A program made the translations under genes and the position numbers. Below are positions 7,167-15,077 of a DNA stretch of 15,423 nucleotides, piece after piece; positions within the stretch are counted from its first letter, which is position 1, and the number at the start of each line of letters is the position of its first letter. A model generated the notes under the pieces. It searched no databases. It saw only the letters and a program-made list of their open reading frames with translations, and was not told where the DNA came from. This stretch comes from a virus (Duplodnaviria > Heunggongvirae > Uroviricota > Caudoviricetes): the IMG/VR virus record IMGVR_UViG_2698536618_000026, positions 1-15,423 of that record. The stretch is one strand, 5' to 3'.

Positions 7167-7293
7167 ATCCTGTGGGTTTCTTTACAAGGATAAATCTTTA
7201 CTTGATTTTAGTGTATTCGATCCTTTTGCAACTTGCATGTTAATTTAAACTTGATGTATTCTTGATTTATAAAGTTAATATTGGTGATTTGTT
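7167..7293. promoter_or_regulatory. cI-cro divergent promoter/operator region (PRM/PR-like)
   Basis: 127-bp AT-rich spacer between divergent repressor and cro-like genes. Three CTTGAT motifs (7201, 7250, 7262) and TTGCAA/TTGCAT -35-like hexamers. Exact -10/-35 assignment not resolved by eye. Confidence 0.5.
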
Positions 7294-7566
7294 ATGAAAG
7301 GAAATGATTACGACAAACTTCGTACATTAATTGCGCAAAATGCCATAGCGCGAAATCTTGGTGTGACGCCGCAAGCGGTGAATCAGTGGTTTTCAAAAAA
7401 CACAATTCCTGCTCGTTTTGTTTTACGCGTATGTGAAGTAGTTGCATGGAAGGTCACGCCACATGACTTAAGGCCAGATCTTTATCCTCACCCTGAAGAT
7501 GGAATTCCTGATTCGTTACGCAAAATTTCAAATCCAAGCCTAGCGCACACGGAAGATGGGAAGTGA
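7294..7566 (+). CDS. cro: Cro/YdaS-like HTH regulator
   Basis: 90 aa. LGVTPQAVNQWFSKNTIP HTH and a DLRPDLYP segment resemble YdaS/Cro-type proteins. First gene rightward of the repressor. Confidence 0.65.
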   Translation: MKGNDYDKLRTLIAQNAIARNLGVTPQAVNQWFSKNTIPARFVLRVCEVVAWKVTPHDLRPDLYPHPEDGIPDSLRKISNPSLAHTEDGK

Positions 7567-7636
7567 TGGTGGTGATATGAGCGAAAAAATAACTATTAAA
7601 TACGATGGGACAACCATTTCGATTGCCCCGATCACA

Positions 7637-7930
7637 TTAGCGTTCGCTGAGAAGTTGTTGGTAAGCCTTAAAGGATGCGAACTGCATTCTACCTTCGGCA
7701 TTGATTCCAATGCCTTCGCTTGTACACCAAGCGATGAACTCGGCTGTATCCGCTTCAACTTTAATAACTCGTTGCCCGCCTCTTTCGACACGCTTAATCA
7801 ATTTTTCAGCGTCGTGTTTCCACTCGGTGTAACTGTCGGAGAGCACATCAGCATCAGTAAAAATATTTTTGAGCTCATGATACTGAATCGCATCGCGAAA
7901 CCAGAATAAACCAACGGCCTGAACTTTCAT
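7637..7930 (-). CDS. Hypothetical 97-aa protein encoded opposite to the early-right operon
   Basis: Strong AGGAGG SD 6 nt upstream of the ATG at 7930. Globular-looking composition, whereas the overlapping plus-strand ORF 7556..7909 looks like antisense translation (S/L/F-rich). No family recognised. Confidence 0.55.
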   Translation of the reverse strand: MKVQAVGLFWFRDAIQYHELKNIFTDADVLSDSYTEWKHDAEKLIKRVERGGQRVIKVEADTAEFIAWCTSEGIGINAEGRMQFASFKAYQQLLSER

Positions 7931-8007
7931 GTCGAACCTCCTTTGGTTCTTTTGTTTATAGGGATCAAAAGGATAACTGAAGGAAGGTTCGGCACCAATA
8001 AGTACGA

Positions 8008-8757
8008 ATGTGCGGAATCTTAAAAGAATTTATCCGTAAGGAGATGGCAGTGAACACCGCAATTTTTAACGGCAAAGCATCCATGACCAGCCTTGAAATC
8101 GCAGAGCTGGTGGGTAGTCAGCACTCAGATGTTAAACGTAGTATCGAACGCCTGGTTGCTAAAAACATCATCCGGAAACCGCCAATGGCTGTTTCCGAGA
8201 AAATCAATAACTTAGGTTTTAAAGTTCAATATGAGCATTACCTGTTTGAAGGAGAACAAGGTAAACGCGACAGCATCATTGTCGTCGCTCAGCTCTGCCC
8301 TGAATTCACTGCTCGCCTGGTAGATCGCTGGCGCGAACTGGAAGAACAGATCCGTAAGCCAATGAGCGAAATCGAAATGGTTGCCGCGATGGCTCTTGAA
8401 GCTGTTCGTCAGCAGAAACGGATCACTCAGGTGGAAGAAAAAGTCAGCCACGTTGCCGAAACAGTTGAGCAAATCAAAAAGGGCACCATTCGTGAGGGCT
8501 ATGCCGGATATCGCCAACTGAAAGCGAAAACCGGTTTGTCAGATGATAAATGCCGCAATCTGGTGAACGCTTATCAAATTCCTACAGACACCCATGAGTT
8601 CATGACGCCGGACGGATTGTTGTCACGTCGCGCAATTGTTGCCGTGGAACCGTTTATGGCTGCTTTTTATCGGGTTATGGAGGAAGCAGAACCGCGAGGG
8701 ACTCGCTGGTATCACCCGAAAATGGGGTTATTTCAGGTTATTGGTTGGCAGCGGTGA
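8008..8757 (+). CDS. Rha-family phage regulatory protein
   Basis: N-terminal ...NGKASMTSLEIAELVGSQHSDVKRSIERL matches the Rha signature. The true start may be ATG 8044 or GTG 8050 (AAGGAG at 8038-8043) rather than 8008. Confidence 0.7.
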   Translation: MCGILKEFIRKEMAVNTAIFNGKASMTSLEIAELVGSQHSDVKRSIERLVAKNIIRKPPMAVSEKINNLGFKVQYEHYLFEGEQGKRDSIIVVAQLCPEFTARLVDRWRELEEQIRKPMSEIEMVAAMALEAVRQQKRITQVEEKVSHVAETVEQIKKGTIREGYAGYRQLKAKTGLSDDKCRNLVNAYQIPTDTHEFMTPDGLLSRRAIVAVEPFMAAFYRVMEEAEPRGTRWYHPKMGLFQVIGWQR

Positions 8758-8781
8758 AAAAAAGCCGGGAGTAACCCGGCT
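8757..8781 (-). terminator. Rho-independent terminator oriented leftward, abutting the Rha stop codon
   Basis: Minus-strand hairpin GCCGGG-UUACU-CCCGGC followed by 7 U. On the plus strand the hairpin is followed by UCACUC, with no U-tract. Confidence 0.55.
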
Positions 8782-9165
8782 CACTCAACATCAATAACGG
8801 GGAGCTGTTTCGCATAAAACGGCTCCGAAACATCCAAGAACAGTTCTAAAGATATCAGCAGCTATATGATCATTTCAAGACCAAATATTGATTCTGCAAT
8901 TCCGGGACGTTACACTGTTCAGGCACCTTATAAAGCGGGTGCCGGGGGTCGCAGCCCGGAATTGTCAACGGCGATATATGACGCGCCAGCGTCTTTTTTA
9001 TCGTCCGCGCTCACGCACGCCAGAATTATGGTGGGCTGGGCAGGGGAGCCGAAAGGCTCGCCGGTCTCCGTTGACGCCGGTACTGCGAACCCTGTTCAGT
9101 CTGCCACCAGTGAGTTTCGCAGCTCCGGTGGTGGAAGTTTTCCACAGTCAACGGAGGCTGCCATC

Positions 9166-9528
9166 ATGGCTACAGTCCCAACCCACTCATTCCTCAAAAT
9201 TGAGAGCGTCAACGGCAAGGCCGTTATTTTCTCCCTGCATGTTGCCTGCCACTTTAAGCGCATGCACCAGAACATCGTCGACAAAATCGAGTATCTGAAC
9301 TGCTCACGCGAGTTTTTTACCCGTAATTTCATACCGGGTACTTATCACATCTATGGCGATTCCCTGCGTGGTTATTACATCACCCTTGATGGGCTGATGA
9401 TGCTTCAGCTTGGGTTAAGTCTGCGCACAATGCGGTACTACGAGAGCTGCATTGAAGCATTCCATGAGGCTGAAACCAGTCTGAATCACACTGCTTTCCG
9501 CCGTAATCAATGGGAGGTGCGCCCATGA
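9166..9528 (+). CDS. Small Rha-like domain protein (120 aa)
   Basis: GGAGG SD 8 nt upstream of the ATG at 9166. LKIESVNGKAVIFSLHVACHFKRMHQNIVDKIEYL parallels the N-terminus of the 8008..8757 Rha protein; YYITLDGLMMLQLGL fits the Rha core. The track extends this frame to 8866, but that extension has a low-complexity A/G/S/P-rich composition. Confidence 0.5.
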   Translation: MATVPTHSFLKIESVNGKAVIFSLHVACHFKRMHQNIVDKIEYLNCSREFFTRNFIPGTYHIYGDSLRGYYITLDGLMMLQLGLSLRTMRYYESCIEAFHEAETSLNHTAFRRNQWEVRP

Positions 9529-9749
9529 TTCGTCGCGTTGTGAATTCTCTGTATCACCGATACAACCGTTGCCCCCGAGTGGGGCAGTGGTTTACCACCA
9601 GCAACGGCCTCGTTCTGCGGGTTTGCCTGGTCAATGCAGAAAGTCAGAAGGTTGTCTGCCAGGTGCAGGGGCGTACTTATACCCTGAGTTACCCGCTGGT
9701 GGCGTTTCAGTCCGGAAAAATGTTTAAGCGTCTGGGAGGTGTCGTATGA
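9525..9749 (+). CDS. Small phage protein (74 aa), paralog of the 1806..2048 product
   Basis: GGGAGGTG SD 5 nt before the ATG at 9525. ATGA overlap with the upstream stop and with the downstream start. Shares the pattern GQ-aromatic-aromatic-T...G...V with the left-arm 80-aa protein. Confidence 0.5.
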   Translation: MIRRVVNSLYHRYNRCPRVGQWFTTSNGLVLRVCLVNAESQKVVCQVQGRTYTLSYPLVAFQSGKMFKRLGGVV

Positions 9750-10672
9750 GTAGCAAGATCCTCGGTAATGTCTGGGATGCATGCGCAGCATATGGCGTCA
9801 AAGGTGCAAAACTGATGATTATGGCGCGCCTGGCTGATTATTCGAATGATGACGGGGTGTGCTACCCGGGTGTTGAAACCATATGTCGACAGCTTGGATT
9901 GGGAGAAAGTACAGTCAGAACGGCAATCTCCGAACTGGAGGCTGATGGCTGGCTGACGCGTCAGTCACGCCGCAAAGGTAACCGTAATACGTCCAATCTT
10001 TATCATCTGAATGCTGATCGGCTTGAGCAGCTTGCCAGAACTGAGCGGGATAAGGTTGCAGAACTGAAACAGCAGCGCAGACTTTCAGTATTACGTGACC
10101 CTTCAGATTCTGAACCTTCAAAATCTGAACCGTCAGAATCTGTATGTTCAGGCGTGTTTGACCCTTCAGATTCTGGCAAAAATACGCGTTTGACCCTTCA
10201 GAATCTGACTCCAGATCCACAAGGTTTAAAACATGAACCACCAGTAAATTCAAAACATGAACCGCAAGATATTGGCGCATCCGCTGACGCGTCTGCACCA
10301 GCGCGTTCTGCCAGACAGGAATATTCACCGGAATTTGAACAGGCCTGGCAGGAATATCCCAAACGTGCTGGTGGTAATTCAAAATCCGCCGCTTTTAAAG
10401 CCTGGAAAGCCCGAATCAGGGAAGGTGTGACACCCGAAACCATGCTCGACGGTGTGAAACGCTATGCCGCCTGGGTGCGTGTCTCTGGAAATACCGGTAC
10501 CCAGTTCGTGAAGCAGGCGTCGACGTTCTTTGGTCCCGATCGACACTTTGACGAATCCTGGCAACAGCCTGCCGTTCCCGGAGGTGGGCGGCAAAGACAG
10601 GTCGATGTCCTGTCTGGCCTTGGTGCCATGTCTGACAAATTCGGTAAATCCAGCGACAAATTGACATTCTGA
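9746..10672 (+). CDS. Replication initiation protein (O-like; N-terminal winged-HTH) with intragenic iterons
   Basis: 308 aa with GGGAGG SD. N-terminal wHTH-like region (CYPGVETICRQLGLGESTVRTAISELEADGWL). Its central part is encoded by a DNA iteron array, as in lambda O/ori. Followed directly by loader and helicase genes. Confidence 0.7.
   Translation: MSSKILGNVWDACAAYGVKGAKLMIMARLADYSNDDGVCYPGVETICRQLGLGESTVRTAISELEADGWLTRQSRRKGNRNTSNLYHLNADRLEQLARTERDKVAELKQQRRLSVLRDPSDSEPSKSEPSESVCSGVFDPSDSGKNTRLTLQNLTPDPQGLKHEPPVNSKHEPQDIGASADASAPARSARQEYSPEFEQAWQEYPKRAGGNSKSAAFKAWKARIREGVTPETMLDGVKRYAAWVRVSGNTGTQFVKQASTFFGPDRHFDESWQQPAVPGGGRQRQVDVLSGLGAMSDKFGKSSDKLTF
10096..10207. repeat. Iteron array (putative replication origin) inside the initiator gene
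   Basis: Direct repeats TGACCCTTCAGATTCTG at 10096 and 10159 and TGACCCTTCAGAATCTG at 10191, plus degenerate copies AACCTTCAAAATCTG (10113) and AACCGTCAGAATCTG (10128). Followed by an AT-richer stretch containing AAAACATGAACC twice (10229, 10252). Confidence 0.6.
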
Positions 10673-10682
10673 GGTGACAGCG

Positions 10683-11561
10683 ATGATGACGTTTAACCTG
10701 CGTGAACAACAAACAAGACTACAGACGCGAATGGACGAGTTACGGGCAGAGATTGCATTTGCTCAGAAGGGCGAAAAGCCATGGCCTTATCGTTCCTGCC
10801 TGATGCGTGAAGATCGCGGATATTGCGAAAAACACGGTAAATATCGTACGCATATACTGGTGTGGAGCGATCGTAATGGCGAGGACAGAGAAAAAATTTC
10901 ATGCTGTCCTGACTGCTTGATCGCTGAGGCCAATGATTTGACCATGGAACTGTCGTCCCTCAAGGCGGAAGAGCTGACTGATAACGCCGGAATTACTCTG
11001 CGTTTTCGGGACTGTGAGTTTGATAATTATCTGGAGGTTAATCCTGACGCAGCCAGAAATCTTGCGGCCTGTCGCCGCTATGCGGAGAACTGGCCAGATA
11101 TGCTGGAGAACGGTACCAGTCTTGTTATGACCGGCAGTTGCGGTACCGGGAAAAATCATCTGGCGGTATCAATGGCAAAACACATCATCCGTAACTATCT
11201 GGCCAGTGTGGAGATCACCGACGTGATGCGCCTTACGCGTGCTGTGAAAAACTGCTGGCGGAATGACAGTGAAAAAACAGCGGATGACGTCATTGAGCAT
11301 TATGCGTCACTGGATTTGCTGATTGTCGACGAAGTCGGCGTTCAGTTTGGCAGTGCGGCTGAAATGGCCATTTTGCAGGAAATTATCAATGCCCGGTATG
11401 AGGGTATTTTGCCAACTATCCTGATCAGCAACCTTTCACCGGAAGAATTGTGGGCGTTCATCAGTCCCCGGATTGCCGACAGGATCACCGATGGCGGGCG
11501 CAACTGGTTGTCGTTTAACTGGCCCAGCTACCGTTCTCGTATCGGAGGTGTTGCCGCATGA
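10683..11561 (+). CDS. DnaC-like helicase loader (AAA+ ATPase)
   Basis: Walker A GSCGTGKNHLA and Walker B LLIVDEVGVQ (DnaC-like GVQ). Start ambiguous (GTG 10674, ATG 10683 or 10686; GAGG at 10671-10674). Its stop overlaps the helicase start (ATGA). Confidence 0.8.
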   Translation: MMTFNLREQQTRLQTRMDELRAEIAFAQKGEKPWPYRSCLMREDRGYCEKHGKYRTHILVWSDRNGEDREKISCCPDCLIAEANDLTMELSSLKAEELTDNAGITLRFRDCEFDNYLEVNPDAARNLAACRRYAENWPDMLENGTSLVMTGSCGTGKNHLAVSMAKHIIRNYLASVEITDVMRLTRAVKNCWRNDSEKTADDVIEHYASLDLLIVDEVGVQFGSAAEMAILQEIINARYEGILPTILISNLSPEELWAFISPRIADRITDGGRNWLSFNWPSYRSRIGGVAA

Positions 11562-12958
11562 CCAGCAAGAACACCCCGGCATGGCGTAACGATGACCTGG
11601 AAGGCGCTGTCATCGGTGCGTTTTTTCTGCGTGGGGCCGATCCGGAAGTGATGGATATTCTGGCCACACTTCCGGCGGATGTATTTTTTGTGCGTCAGTA
11701 CCGGGATATTTACGCGGGGATTTGCAGACAGGCTCGCATATCCGGCGTCATTGACCCCGTACTGCTGTGCAATGAGATGCCGGAACTTGCCCCGGTGATT
11801 ACCGACACCGGACGCAAAACCTGGGTGAAGTCTTCACTGGAGCACTATGTCGCAGCGTTGCGGCGCAATGCCGCACTGCGCGATGCAGAAAAAACACTGA
11901 CAGAAGCATTACAGAATTTACGTGATGCGCATACCTGTGAAGCAGCCGAGGATGCCCTGAAGGATGCGCAGAACATGATGGCCTCACTGTCGACCGGAAA
12001 GGGCGTCATTCAGCCGGTTCACATTGATGATGTCCTTCCGGAAGTGGTAGACCGTGTTGAATGCCGCAATCAGGGACTGGAGAAATCCAGGGCGCTGATG
12101 ACCGGTATTGATGAACTGGACGCAAAAACGGGCGGTATGGAGCCCGGAGACCTGGTATTCATTGCGGCTCGTCCTTCGATGGGGAAAACCGAACTTGCGC
12201 TGGATATCATCGACAAGGTGACTGAGCAGGGGCATGGCGTGCTTCTGTTCACTATGGAGATGGCGAACATCCAGATTGGTGAACGTATGGTGTCTGCTGC
12301 CGGAGGAATGCCGGTATCCCGTCTTAAGTCTGTTGCCCGTTTTGAAGATGAAGACTGGGCACGTTTCTCGCAGGGTGTGAGACGAATGACGGGGCGTAAT
12401 ATCTGGATGGTGGACCTGGCAAACCTGACCATTGATGAGATATGTGCAACCACGAAGCACCACCGGATGAAACACCCGGAAACGGCGCTGGTTGTGGTCG
12501 ATTACCTCGGCCTGATTAAAACCCGCAGCACGGGGCGTCACGACCTTGCTGTGGGGGAAATCTCAAAGGGACTTAAAAGCCTGGCAAAATCCGGCGGTTT
12601 TCCGCTGATTGCTCTGAGCCAGCTCTCCCGTGGCGTGGAATCCAGACCCAATAAACGCCCCATGAACTCGGACCTGAAAAACTCCGGGGAAATAGAGGCG
12701 GATGCAGACATCATTCTGATGCTTTACAGGGATGAGGTGTACAACCCGGAGACACTGGCGAGAGGCATAGCAGAAATCAACATCACGAAACAGCGTAATG
12801 GCACGCTGGGTACCATTTACCGGCGTTTTCATAACGGGCATTTTCTGCCTGTGGATCAGGAGAGTGCCCGGGTTCTTTCCACTCCCATGACGCCGGGCAA
12901 TCCGCGCAGATACAGCAATAACCGCATGTCGGGTAGTAAAACGGAGCGTTTATTTTGA
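11558..12958 (+). CDS. Replicative DNA helicase (DnaB family)
   Basis: 466 aa. Walker A ARPSMGKTELALD. DnaB-like C-terminal RecA-fold motifs (LFTMEMANIQIGERM, VVVDYLGLI, ALSQLSRGVESR). GGAGGTG SD 6 nt upstream of the ATG. Confidence 0.85.
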   Translation: MTSKNTPAWRNDDLEGAVIGAFFLRGADPEVMDILATLPADVFFVRQYRDIYAGICRQARISGVIDPVLLCNEMPELAPVITDTGRKTWVKSSLEHYVAALRRNAALRDAEKTLTEALQNLRDAHTCEAAEDALKDAQNMMASLSTGKGVIQPVHIDDVLPEVVDRVECRNQGLEKSRALMTGIDELDAKTGGMEPGDLVFIAARPSMGKTELALDIIDKVTEQGHGVLLFTMEMANIQIGERMVSAAGGMPVSRLKSVARFEDEDWARFSQGVRRMTGRNIWMVDLANLTIDEICATTKHHRMKHPETALVVVDYLGLIKTRSTGRHDLAVGEISKGLKSLAKSGGFPLIALSQLSRGVESRPNKRPMNSDLKNSGEIEADADIILMLYRDEVYNPETLARGIAEINITKQRNGTLGTIYRRFHNGHFLPVDQESARVLSTPMTPGNPRRYSNNRMSGSKTERLF

Positions 12959-13212
12959 ACAACAGAACAACTACTGTTTCACCGGAACAACTTCGTCGGC
13001 AGGCGCAGGAGATGCTTCGTTGTGCTGAACAGATGGAAAAAACGAGCGTGGCAAAAGATACGCTCCGCAAGCAGCTTACTCCGGCGCTTCGTGATCTGCT
13101 GCAGGCAAAACACCGTACACAAAAGGCGGTGGATGAGCTGGTGGATTGCGTGGCGGAACTAGAAGGCCAGGTAAGCCAGTTTGAAACGCTGGTGAAGGAG
13201 TTTACTGCGTGA
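12955..13212 (+). CDS. Hypothetical helical protein (85 aa)
   Basis: TTG start with GGAG 8 nt upstream, overlapping the helicase stop. Charged, coiled-coil-like composition. No family recognised. Confidence 0.4.
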   Translation: MNNRTTTVSPEQLRRQAQEMLRCAEQMEKTSVAKDTLRKQLTPALRDLLQAKHRTQKAVDELVDCVAELEGQVSQFETLVKEFTA

Positions 13213-13258
13213 TGGCTGAATTTTTTTCTCCTGCGTTCATGCAATACCGTTCGCTGAG

Positions 13259-14254
13259 GTGGCCGTGAGAGCACTACTGACCCCTGAAATTGCCCCGCGT
13301 ATGGGGATCGTATTGTTCAGGCCAGGTTCAGAGCTGATGCCCCTGTTTATGCAGGGGCGTGTCCTGCTGGAGCCTGAGCCGGAACGTTATTCATCTTTCG
13401 CCAGTGGTGCCGTTCCGGCGGCATCACAACCGCTGGCGGATGATCCTGCCGTTCGGGCCGTGTTCCGCAATGAGGCGGTGATCCGTCGTGCTGGTGGCGT
13501 GGAATGCCTTGAGAGCTGGTTACTTCGTGAAAAGGGCTGTCAGTGGCCTCATTCCGACTGGCACAGCGAGAACATGACCACAATGCGGCACGCGCCAGGC
13601 GCAATCCGTCTGTGCTGGCACTGTGACAATCTTCTCCGTGACCAGTTCACGGAACGGCTGGAAGCAATGGCAACGGATAACTGTGCCCGCTGGGTGTTGT
13701 CTGTTGTGCGCCGTGATCTTGGTTTTGATGACAGTCACGTTGTGACAATGCCGGAACTGTGCTGGTGGCTGATTCGTAATGACCTGGCGGATGCCTTACC
13801 GGAAAGTGCAGCCCGTAAGGCACTGAGATTACCGAAGCCTGTTGTGCCGTCTGTCACCCGGGAAAGTGATCTTGTGCCTTCGGTTACTGCCACCAGCATC
13901 ATCCAGGATAAGGCGAAAAAGGTGCTGACGCTGAAAGTGGATCCGGAGTCGCCGGAGTCTTTTATGTTACGCCCAAAACGTCGTCGCTGGGTTAATGAAA
14001 AGTACACGCGCTGGGTTAAGACGCAGCCGTGTGCATGTTGTGGTAAGCCAGCCGACGATCCTCATCACCTGATTGGTCATGGTCAGGGTGGAATGGGTAC
14101 AAAAGCGCATGACCTTTTTGTGTTGCCTTTGTGCAGAAAACACCATGACGAACTGCATGCGGATACCGTGGCATTTGAAGAGAAGTATGGTTCCCAACTG
14201 GAGCTGATATTTCGTTTTATCGATCGCGCGCTGGCGATTGGTGTGCTGTCCTGA
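13259..14254 (+). CDS. Phage protein with C-terminal Cys/His zinc-ribbon/HNH-like motif (tentatively DUF968-like)
   Basis: 331 aa. C-terminal CACCGKPADDPHHLIGHGQGGMGTKAHDLFVLPLCRKHHDELH. GTG start (13259 or 13265) next to GAGGTGG. Confidence 0.55.
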   Translation: MAVRALLTPEIAPRMGIVLFRPGSELMPLFMQGRVLLEPEPERYSSFASGAVPAASQPLADDPAVRAVFRNEAVIRRAGGVECLESWLLREKGCQWPHSDWHSENMTTMRHAPGAIRLCWHCDNLLRDQFTERLEAMATDNCARWVLSVVRRDLGFDDSHVVTMPELCWWLIRNDLADALPESAARKALRLPKPVVPSVTRESDLVPSVTATSIIQDKAKKVLTLKVDPESPESFMLRPKRRRWVNEKYTRWVKTQPCACCGKPADDPHHLIGHGQGGMGTKAHDLFVLPLCRKHHDELHADTVAFEEKYGSQLELIFRFIDRALAIGVLS

Positions 14255-14271
14255 TTTTGTGGAGAAAGTTG

Positions 14272-14652
14272 ATGCGTGATATTCAGATGGTTCTTGAACG
14301 CTGGGGGGCATGGGCTGCAAGTGGTAACACCGGGGTGGACTATTCTCCGATCGCTGCCGGATTCAAAGGACTTTTACCATCTGCCACTAAACCACGTCCG
14401 GCCTGCTGCGATGATGACGGACTTATCATTGAAAACTGTCTTGCTCGTCTGAAGCAGAAAAAACCTGAGGAGTATTCGCTTCTCATTGCTCATTATTTGT
14501 TGCGAATATCAAAAAGACAGATAGCCAGGACGAGAAAGAAAAGCGAAAAAGCAATACGAATTGAGATGCAGATAGCCGAAGGGTTTATTGACGGATGTTT
14601 GTCTGTGCTGGGGGTAAGACTGGAGATGGACGGCTGGCTGCTAAAAAAGTAA
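14272..14652 (+). CDS. Q: Late-gene antitermination protein Q (small Q family)
   Basis: MRDIQMVLERWGAWAASGN... N-terminus and overall size match the short Q-antiterminator family of E. coli prophages. GGAG SD 7 nt before the ATG at 14272 (track start TTG 14257). Immediately followed by a terminator, as expected for a Q-pR'-tR' module. Confidence 0.65.
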   Translation: MRDIQMVLERWGAWAASGNTGVDYSPIAAGFKGLLPSATKPRPACCDDDGLIIENCLARLKQKKPEEYSLLIAHYLLRISKRQIARTRKKSEKAIRIEMQIAEGFIDGCLSVLGVRLEMDGWLLKK

Positions 14653-14722
14653 AAAATGATTAGTGCGGTCCGCAAAAAGTATGTCAGTATGTTAAGAGTG
14701 GTTACTTCGCCACACAGCTTAA

Positions 14723-14747
14723 ACCCGCCGCGAGCGGGTTTTTTTAT
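14723..14747 (+). terminator. Rho-independent terminator (tR'-like) downstream of Q
   Basis: Hairpin CCCGC-CGCGA-GCGGG followed by T7 (aaacccgccgcgagcgggttttttt), 70 nt after the Q stop. Confidence 0.65.
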
Positions 14748-14867
14748 GGCTGAAATCGGTCCAGTACAGTAAACGTGCTGGTGGCGGTGAATACCTGTCT
14801 TTCAGCTTGCTGGCTTTTTCGACAAGAGTTATTGGTGTGTCACGTTAACCGAAAAAGGGAAAAAGAC

Positions 14868-15065
14868 ATGCTGAAACAGCAGGATATGACAGAAACCGCC
14901 AGAGTGGTGTTTAATGAATTAAGCGTCACCGAACCGGCGACAGTCGGGGAGATTGCGCAGAATACTTACCTTTCACGCGAACGCTGTCAGTTAATACTGA
15001 CCCAGCTTGTTATGGCGGGTCTGGCAGACTATCAGTTCGGTTGTTACAGACGCCTTCCGCAGTGA
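14868..15065 (+). CDS. Small hypothetical protein (65 aa), possible winged-helix fold
   Basis: ATG at 14868 with AAGGGA SD. Track ORF starts earlier (14775), but that start lies within or just after the terminator. Its stop codon sits inside a terminator hairpin. Confidence 0.4.
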   Translation: MLKQQDMTETARVVFNELSVTEPATVGEIAQNTYLSRERCQLILTQLVMAGLADYQFGCYRRLPQ

Positions 15066-15077
15066 AGGCTTTTTTAT
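15052..15077 (+). terminator. Rho-independent terminator
   Basis: Hairpin GCCTTC-CGCAGT-GAAGGC followed by TTTTTTATTT, overlapping the stop codon of the 14868..15065 gene. Confidence 0.55.

Follow-up and report, generated by a model that had tools for sequence, protein, structure and literature searches.

A candidate replication origin within the initiator gene of a phiP27-like Escherichia coli prophage

Where does a phiP27-like prophage begin to replicate its DNA? The question is raised by a 15,423-nt stretch of Caudoviricetes DNA (IMG/VR record IMGVR_UViG_2698536618_000026, positions 1 to 15,423; hereafter the window), which is the early region of a phiP27-type lambdoid prophage of Escherichia coli. 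Here, the gene of a replication initiator, followed by those of a DnaC-like helicase loader and a DnaB-type replicative helicase, contains an array of five direct repeats (iterons) and, next to it, an A+T-richer segment. We estimate at roughly 0.8 the probability that these elements, at positions ~10097-10270, are the theta-type replication origin of the prophage, lying in that part of the initiator gene which codes for a linker. A candidate origin had been proposed at this place by an earlier interpretation made from the DNA letters alone (the sequence-only reading).

The array consists of five direct copies of the 16-mer GAMCCKTCARAWTCTG, whose start positions (Table 1) are spaced by 15, 15, 33 and 32 bp, and not by 16, 16, 31 and 32 bp as stated by the sequence-only reading. 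The core of the iterons, TCAGAWTCTGA, is its own reverse complement. When up to two mismatches are allowed, GAMCCKTCARAWTCTG has seven matches in the 15.4-kb window, all inside 10097-10207 and two of them reverse-strand echoes of the palindromic core, against 0.14 expected from shuffled sequences (none of 200 shuffles reaches seven). The claim of five direct repeats in the initiator gene is therefore upheld, and their description as being of the TCAGA(A/T)TCTG type is correct in general, save for copy 2, which has TCAAAATCTG, one base off that core. Tandem Repeats Finder recovers iterons 1-3 as a 15-bp array, the sole sizeable tandem repeat of the window besides one at its end, and neither this program nor a pattern scan found a second iteron-like array in the window.

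The array spans codons 118-154 of the initiator open reading frame (ORF), directly 3' of the region coding for the DNA-binding domain, which ends at ~aa 116. Iterons 1-4 encode DPSDSEPSKSEPSES...DPSDSG, and iteron 5 (10192-10207) lies in another reading frame and is read TLQNL rather than DPSxS, since the 32-bp spacing that precedes it is not a multiple of three. The first base of iteron 1, nt 10097, is also the start (codon 118) of a stretch, aa 118-189, that is predicted by AlphaFold2 to be unstructured. The idea that the repeats are translated as a repetitive, disordered linker thus holds, save that the fifth copy does not encode DPSxS.

DnaA boxes are not enriched, and no match to TTWTNCACA with up to one mismatch lies between 9812 and 10823. 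One candidate DnaA box, AGATCCACA at 10213, was rejected: it has two mismatches, and the SfIV clade has GATCCGTCA in its place. A promoter/terminator scan, Rfam and PADLOC returned nothing at the repeat region. The cumulative GC skew dips over the repeats, a dip that mirrors the composition of the repeats themselves and was left out of the evidence for an origin.

We found the array to recur throughout the relatives of the initiator. Phage records, IMG/VR and a set of 185,579 species-representative genomes yielded about 160 loci with homologues of its N-terminal domain; these are Enterobacterales prophages and phages with hosts in Escherichia, Shigella, Klebsiella, Citrobacter, Proteus, Providencia, Yersinia, Rahnella, Pantoea and other genera. 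In the 159 full-length homologous genes, nt 250-560 contain 538 copies of the core TCARAWTCTG, as opposed to two in the other 481 kb of these loci. Absence of the repeats from homologous initiators would have spoken against the sequence-only reading; instead, at least one copy of a relaxed core, YCARAWTYTG, is present in 147 of 147 full-length genes, at least two in 146, and four to seven in 127. The same core is found at the same place in SfIV, SfII, LLS, KpF5, YeP2 and many prophages, whose N-terminal domains are ~60-65% identical to that of the window.

Several features indicate that what is conserved in the array is the DNA. Among 128 members whose N-terminal domains are on average 66% identical to that of the window, third codon positions match at only 40% of identical residues, so that synonymous sites of this domain are near saturation. 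In the SxS peptides of the linkers of these members, the first serine is encoded by TCA in 89% of cases and the second by TCT in 86%. The same holds in a set of 148 non-identical genes, where TCA and TCT account for 90% and 87% of the respective linker serines but for 17% and 11% of the other serines of the same genes. The middle codon is no less constrained, with 276 AAA and no AAG, 151 GAA and no GAG, 69 GAT and one GAC, and 35 AAT and no AAC. Moreover, 17 core copies, the fifth of the window among them, are translated in another frame, as LQNL or RQNL, and Proteus prophages retain CAGAWTCTG under a different peptide, HPPESG. Fixed codons, use of a second frame and retention under a different peptide together mean that the repeats are selected as DNA sequence, beyond the needs of the peptide, and that the repetition of the peptide is a consequence.

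Two E. coli loci, L083 and L088 (ECDA1023, ECGI0523; gene start at 1501), carry an N-terminal homologue (57% identity over 90 aa) within a 455-aa ORF without iterons. This ORF may represent a rearranged prophage remnant, with a C-terminal part that is terminase-like by eye only.

The distribution of the repeats follows the N-terminal domain and not the rest of the protein. One and the same N-terminal domain, with its iterons and the units of the A+T-richer segment, is joined to at least three clusters of C-terminal domains. A DnaC-like gene lies downstream in 22 of 22 loci with the C-terminal cluster of the window, in 18 of 18 with that of Proteus, and in three of 117 with that of SfIV/LLS; the type of C-terminal domain hence tracks the presence of a loader gene. 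These downstream loader genes were found by tblastn, as a regular expression for the Walker A motif misses the loader of the window itself, where the motif is GSCGTGKN.

The reciprocal arrangement is found as well. About 30 Shiga toxin (Stx) phages match the window gene by megablast only from nt 525 onwards (window position 10270), and the C-terminal module of the window is 88-94% identical in DNA to initiators that have other N-terminal modules. Two such modules are found on this C-terminal half, each bringing a repeat set of its own and, behind it, an AT-rich stretch of its own: one has GGGAAACC-type repeats and then CAGAGAATAC three times (Stx2_EH2201; Stx2_14040, the Eru7 representative), the other ATTCACCAGGTGGT-type repeats (PhiR49_2, Min27-like). 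All three module types share a common junction, TATTGGCGCATCCGCTGAC, at ~10270, at the end of the A+T-richer segment, and in the window's own clade divergence likewise starts directly past GATATTGGCG. The N-terminal domain, the repeats and the A+T-richer segment are therefore inherited as a unit, apart from the C-terminal domain. Such a pattern is what one would expect of an N-terminal domain that recognises the repeats and of a C-terminal domain that handles the helicase-loading partner. The comparison with the initiator regions of related prophages that the sequence-only reading had suggested has thus shown the repeats to accompany the N-terminal domain across C-terminal types and in many host genera.

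The number of iterons is variable even at short evolutionary distance. Close homologues (88-97% identical) range from 285 to 328 aa; most of the lengths from 298 to 328 aa differ by steps of 5 aa, and shorter forms have 285-287 aa. In near-identical genes the iteron number goes from 2 to 9. In the 287-aa variant, present in seven contigs, recombination between iterons 1 and 4 has removed 63 bp, and only iterons 4 and 5 plus the A+T-richer segment are left; the 328-aa variant carries nine iterons, seven in tandem and two further ones. Both extremes retain the downstream loader and helicase genes. The minimal natural set is therefore the iteron pair that adjoins the A+T-richer segment. The corresponding stretches of two variant loci, L173 (1805-1995) and L175 (1805-2120), are homologues of window positions 10050-10300.

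Concerning the 60-bp segment itself, its G+C content is 0.37-0.38 at 10200-10279, as compared to ~0.5 in the remaining gene, with a strong skew of A over T. It contains AAAACATGAACC in exactly two copies (10228-10239 and 10252-10263, 24 bp apart; 0.15 expected), as the sequence-only reading had stated; the segment is real, but its A+T richness is modest. It can be described as three units with GATCC or GAACC at their start, GATCCACAAG (10214), GAACCACCAG (10235) and GAACCGCAAG (10259), 21 and 24 bp apart. Across the family, the segment has an A+T content of 53.7% versus 47.4%, and in 135 of 147 genes the first of two or three GAWCCNNNAG units (24-bp spacing) starts 15-16 nt past the start of the core of the last iteron. 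Over the 80 nt that follow the last iteron, GATC has a density of 24.8 per kb, against 4.2 per kb elsewhere in these genes, a ~6-fold enrichment. The units of the Proteus prophages are perfect tandem copies of GATCCACAAGTAAATTCAAAACAT, nearly the sequence of the window. In phiP27 (L001, 3468-3525) and in Proteus loci (L016 and others) each unit begins with GATC, a Dam site; two of the three units of the window (10214-10269) begin with GAAC instead.

The protein encoded by the gene fits with a role in initiation. It matches HTH_36 (PF13730) at aa 23-70 (E 9.5e-12; 45 bits for a Pfam cut-off of 25) and, over aa 2-307, PHROG 270, 'replication initiation protein' (E 1.4e-81). Together with the DnaC-like and DnaB-like genes downstream, these matches support its identification as a replication initiator, made earlier from the sequence only; its existing labels are 'helix-turn-helix domain-containing protein' in RefSeq and 'unknown' for L17 of phiP27. 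The gene shares 99.2% identity with prophage genes of two complete E. coli genomes, 94.5% with that of the Stx2a phage Stx2_KH16-043, and 90.6% with phiP27 L17. An AlphaFold2 model, built on an alignment of 20 sequences, has an N-terminal domain with helices at 3-14, 17-31, 43-50 and 54-66, a beta hairpin at 70-75/83-88 and a long helix at 90-116, followed by the unstructured stretch and by a small helical domain at 195-247. Among relatives of ~60% identity, what stays invariant in the N-terminal domain is the recognition helix (G53, S55-A60) and the wing (R75-N84). Winged helices of the MarR/PadR type are typically dimers bound to palindromic sites, and the palindromic core is a suitable site for a dimeric protein of this fold.

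The following mechanism may be proposed, in which the binding of the protein, the unwinding, the recruitment of the helicase and the firing of the origin are extrapolated from lambda O/ori and from G38P/oriL of SPP1. Dimers of the N-terminal HTH_36 winged helix would occupy the five iterons at their palindromic TCAGAWTCTGA cores and form a nucleoprotein complex. This complex would distort the DNA and help to open the adjoining A+T-richer units, spaced by 21 and 24 bp. The C-terminal domain of the initiator would then recruit the loader (DnaC-like) and the helicase (DnaB-like) that the phage itself encodes just downstream, after which host primase and polymerase would act.

A number of points weigh against an origin at this place. 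The AT-richer segment is only moderately unstable and may not be an unwinding element: its least stable 40-mer (10200-10275) ranks no higher than among the top 4.3% of those in the window, and intergenic regulatory regions of the window are less stable. The structural model of the initiator is of low confidence (mean predicted local distance difference test score, pLDDT, 53.8; ~70-80 in the domains), and the Foldseek matches that place its N-terminal domain among MarR/PadR-type winged helices are weak (E ~3e-3), so that from such a model the fold search resolves only the winged-helix fold class; among solved structures, similarity by sequence is limited to marginal matches to the winged helices of FadR/PaaX. 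The loci of the family share descent, and the counts given above are accordingly of non-independent events. Furthermore, we could not find any paper mapping an origin in this initiator family in searches for phiP27, the Eru types and HTH_36, and a full-text literature search for the literal iteron sequences returned unrelated primer lists only. Finally, the comparative data tie the repeats to the N-terminal domain and do not by themselves separate an origin from, for example, a site of autoregulation.

This last point is the basis of the alternative that survives best, improbable as we consider it: the repeats would be sites for the N-terminal domain of the initiator but with a regulatory role, as in autorepression or a transcriptional roadblock in the operon, and the origin would lie elsewhere. 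In addition to the link of the repeats with the N-terminal domain only, it can be noted that MarR/GntR-like winged-helix folds are typical of repressors, and that other parts of the window, for instance at ~7240 and ~6312, are richer in AT and lower in stability. However, the sites are in the middle of a gene, with no promoter-like site in or near the array, and no other iteron-like array was found in the window. Moreover, the conserved AT/GATC segment always comes next, at a fixed offset, the gene family is annotated as replication initiator and placed as such beside loader and helicase genes, and the layout agrees with the experimentally proven origins of lambda and SPP1.

We regard as quite improbable that the repeats are bound by another protein, either a host factor or a phage regulator such as the Rha/Ash proteins encoded upstream. 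The clustering of GATC beside the array does suggest that host Dam/SeqA may act there. Yet the repeats follow the N-terminal domain even where the upstream genes differ (SfIV, LLS and KpF5 have cII-like or other genes and no Rha/Ash), and a swap of the N-terminal domain is a swap of the repeats, even though the upstream Rha/Ash and the downstream DnaC and DnaB genes remain unchanged.

A function as RNA structure in the mRNA of the replication operon, affecting for example its stability or translation, is very improbable. A 191-nt segment does fold at -49.7 kcal/mol (z = -4.06), but this is an automatic result of the repetition of a palindromic core. Copy number (2-9) and spacing vary, which would alter any fold, the two sister module types have non-palindromic repeats at the same position, and the region lacks any Rfam match; covariation offers no test here, since the cores are invariant.

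It is scarcely credible that the DNA is conserved as a recombination linker or hot spot that favours mosaic exchange at the module boundary. A mosaic junction does exist at ~10270, and deletions and expansions arise by recombination between iterons; still, the junction sequence TATTGGCGCATCC... is outside the iterons, and a role in exchange accounts neither for five palindromic copies nor for their tie to one DNA-binding domain. As for a mere low-complexity peptide linker of repeated (D/E)PS(K/D/E)S, maintained for protein reasons or generated by slippage and without a function as DNA, its probability is next to nil: the region is translated as a repeat, is predicted to be disordered and varies in length by 5-aa steps, but its synonymous positions are fixed (TCA, TCT and the A/T wobble of the middle codon) next to a domain that is near saturation (0.40 identity), and the same DNA is retained in a second frame (LQNL/RQNL) and under HPPES.

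If the locus is indeed an origin, a further and unlikely possibility is that it is a tunable one with dual coding, where the array would both recruit the initiator and set the length of its linker in 5-aa steps, and the GATC-headed 24-bp units would form an unwinding or helicase-loading element sensitive to Dam/SeqA. Changes between 2 and 9 copies would then shift origin strength and protein geometry together, and could set the vigour of replication, and thus the induction burst and the Shiga-toxin dose in Stx-phage relatives. The GATC units would in that case be common to phages with quite different helicase-loading routes.

The coordinates of the locus and its surroundings are given in Table 1. 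The start of the loader gene was taken at ATG 10683, after a RefSeq homologue; an alternative start is GTG 10674, 2 nt past the stop codon of the initiator gene. Two RNA families have matches, at the Rfam gathering score, inside the ORF at 8866-9528: the Hfq-binding RNA isrK (RF01394, 58.7 bits, 8923-8999, plus strand) and C4 antisense RNA (RF01695, 78.8 bits, 9024-9111, plus strand). The matches suggest that the early operon holds either an isrK-type regulatory RNA or an antisense immunity element of the P1/P7 type. The tandem repeat at the end of the window is made of 2.9 copies of the 12-bp sequence AGTGTCTGGCGC (15389-15422); it ends one base before the last position, 15423, and may be cut there.

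Table 1. Position of the candidate origin, the initiator gene and neighbouring genes in the window.
Feature	Position (nt)	Strand	Evidence or remarks
Integrase gene	75-1361	minus	
CI-like regulator gene	6471-7166	minus	
Cro-like regulator gene	7294-7566	plus	
Two Rha/Ash genes	8008-8757, 8866-9528		Upstream of initiator gene
Small ORF	9510-9749		Between Ash/Rha ORF and initiator gene
Replication initiator gene (308 aa), holds candidate origin	9746-10672	plus	ORF, PF13730, PHROG 270
Winged-helix DNA-binding domain (aa 1-88) and long helix (aa 90-116)	9746-10093	plus	AlphaFold2
Iteron 1, GACCCTTCAGATTCTG	10097-10112		Core 10103-10113
Iteron 2, GAACCTTCAAAATCTG	10112-10127		Core 10118-10128
Iteron 3, GAACCGTCAGAATCTG	10127-10142		Core 10133-10143
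Iteron 4, GACCCTTCAGATTCTG	10160-10175		Retained in shortest natural variants
Iteron 5, GACCCTTCAGAATCTG	10192-10207		Frame differs (TLQNL); retained in shortest natural variants
A+T-richer, A-skewed segment, candidate unwinding element	10209-10269		GC, repeats, conservation
C-terminal module: remaining linker and small helical domain (aa 195-247)	10270-10672	plus	megablast, AlphaFold2
DnaC-like helicase loader gene	10683-11561	plus	PF01695, NF005931 DnaC, PHROG 50
DnaB-type replicative helicase gene	11558-12958	plus	PF03796 (E 1.1e-72), TIGR00665, TIGR03600 phage_DnaB, PHROG 19

A widespread group of Enterobacterales prophages, phiP27-like phages among them, carries this initiator gene at the head of its replication module, and the locus would provide the group with an as yet unannotated candidate origin. 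The same C-terminal half and the loader and helicase genes are also present in Eru7-type Shiga-toxin phages, and origins of the HTH_36 or Rha-led types receive no discussion in the papers that define the replication types of Stx phages (Eru1-13). Prophage replication drives toxin gene dosage after induction, and the candidate origin, its core TCAGAWTCTGA and the minimal variant of two iterons plus the A+T-richer segment represent targets to study or block this process. A simple rule, an HTH_36 domain with its own repeats behind it, could help in the annotation of origins in many prophages, the Stx-phage relatives of the phiP27-like ones included. The TCA-RAW-TCT codon signature and the frame-shifted copy also make a clear example of a DNA site imposing a peptide repeat on a protein.

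How does the locus compare with known origins? Phage lambda, whose sequence was fetched as a control, has its origin in the middle of the initiator gene, with four annotated 18-bp iterons at codons 117-145 of O and an A-rich tract next to them; the iterons of the window start at codon 118. In both phages the iterons come directly after an N-terminal DNA-binding domain, have internal symmetry and are followed by an A+T-rich tract, modestly so in the window, and the minimal set is the two iterons nearest to this tract. Classical comparisons of lambdoid origins (lambda, phi80, 82) indicate that the N-terminal half is exchanged jointly with the iterons, and that the C-terminal half goes with the helicase-recruiting partner. 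The number of iterons also differs among lambda-type relatives, with four in lambda and six in Stx phages (933W-type variant) (PMC7466680).

This layout has long been known; what differs here is that it occurs in an unrelated initiator family, HTH_36. Lambda O matches PF04492 at aa 22-115 (E 5.7e-36), whereas the initiator of the window has no match to PF04492 at E <= 0.01 and no significant BLASTP similarity to lambda O. It is therefore not a homologue of lambda O, and the 'replication protein O' labels of some relatives are a habit of annotation. The lambda-like arrangement put forward by the sequence-only reading hence applies to the layout of the locus and not to the protein. The iterons differ too, being 18 bp long and spaced by 20-24 bp in lambda, and 15-16 bp long, with the TCAGAWTCTGA core and partly in tandem at 15 bp, in the window. 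The AT-richer segment of the window is weaker than that of lambda and is built of 21/24-bp units that often start with GATC, and its phage has a DnaC-like loader and a DnaB-like helicase of its own, whereas lambda P captures the DnaB of the host. Just to the right of the A-rich tract of the lambda origin (L176, 664-690) we noticed TCGTCAGAGAATTCTGGCG, which is like the window core CCGTCAGAATCTGG, maybe by chance.

The lambdoid Salmonella phage P22 has an origin inside its initiator gene 18 and a DnaB-type helicase of its own (gene 12); its gp18 is a protein of the lambda O family and, to our knowledge, it has no separate DnaC-like loader. The Stx phage 'P27' of a study of O/ori binding, for which no accession is given, has a lambda-type O and six lambda-type iterons (PMC7466680). 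These rule it out as the L17-L19 module of NC_003356 (phiP27), which is composed of HTH_36, DnaC and DnaB.

A parallel also exists with iteron plasmids (pPS10, F, R6K, RK2), where winged-helix Rep proteins bind direct repeats beside an AT-rich unwinding element. Plasmid iterons are outside the rep gene and also serve in copy-number control by handcuffing; unlike them, the iterons of the window form part of the coding sequence, and the protein bears a peptide repeat as a result.

The closest characterised analogue with three components is that of SPP1. This phage has its oriL inside gene 38, with repeats (AB boxes) that are bound by the organiser G38P and adjoin an AT-rich unwinding element; the loader G39P and the DnaB-type helicase G40P act after G38P, which is assigned to pfam09524 (PMC5737612). 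An LLS-type relative with the same N-terminal domain and iterons as the window has a TIGR02220 C-terminal domain (E 2e-19). We take TIGR02220 to be equivalent to pfam09524. In profile searches, no match to TIGR02220 or PF09524 was found for the window protein, and hhalign gave a weak match between the window-type and LLS-type C-terminal alignments (16% probability, E 0.0016), too weak to be more than suggestive, so that we dropped the identification of the C-terminal domain of the window with that of G38P/TIGR02220. SPP1 infects a Gram-positive host (Bacillus) and has different repeats, and its loader G39P is not known to be of the AAA+ DnaC type. Nevertheless, the order of genes is the same in both phages, an organiser that holds the repeats followed by a loader and a DnaB-type helicase.

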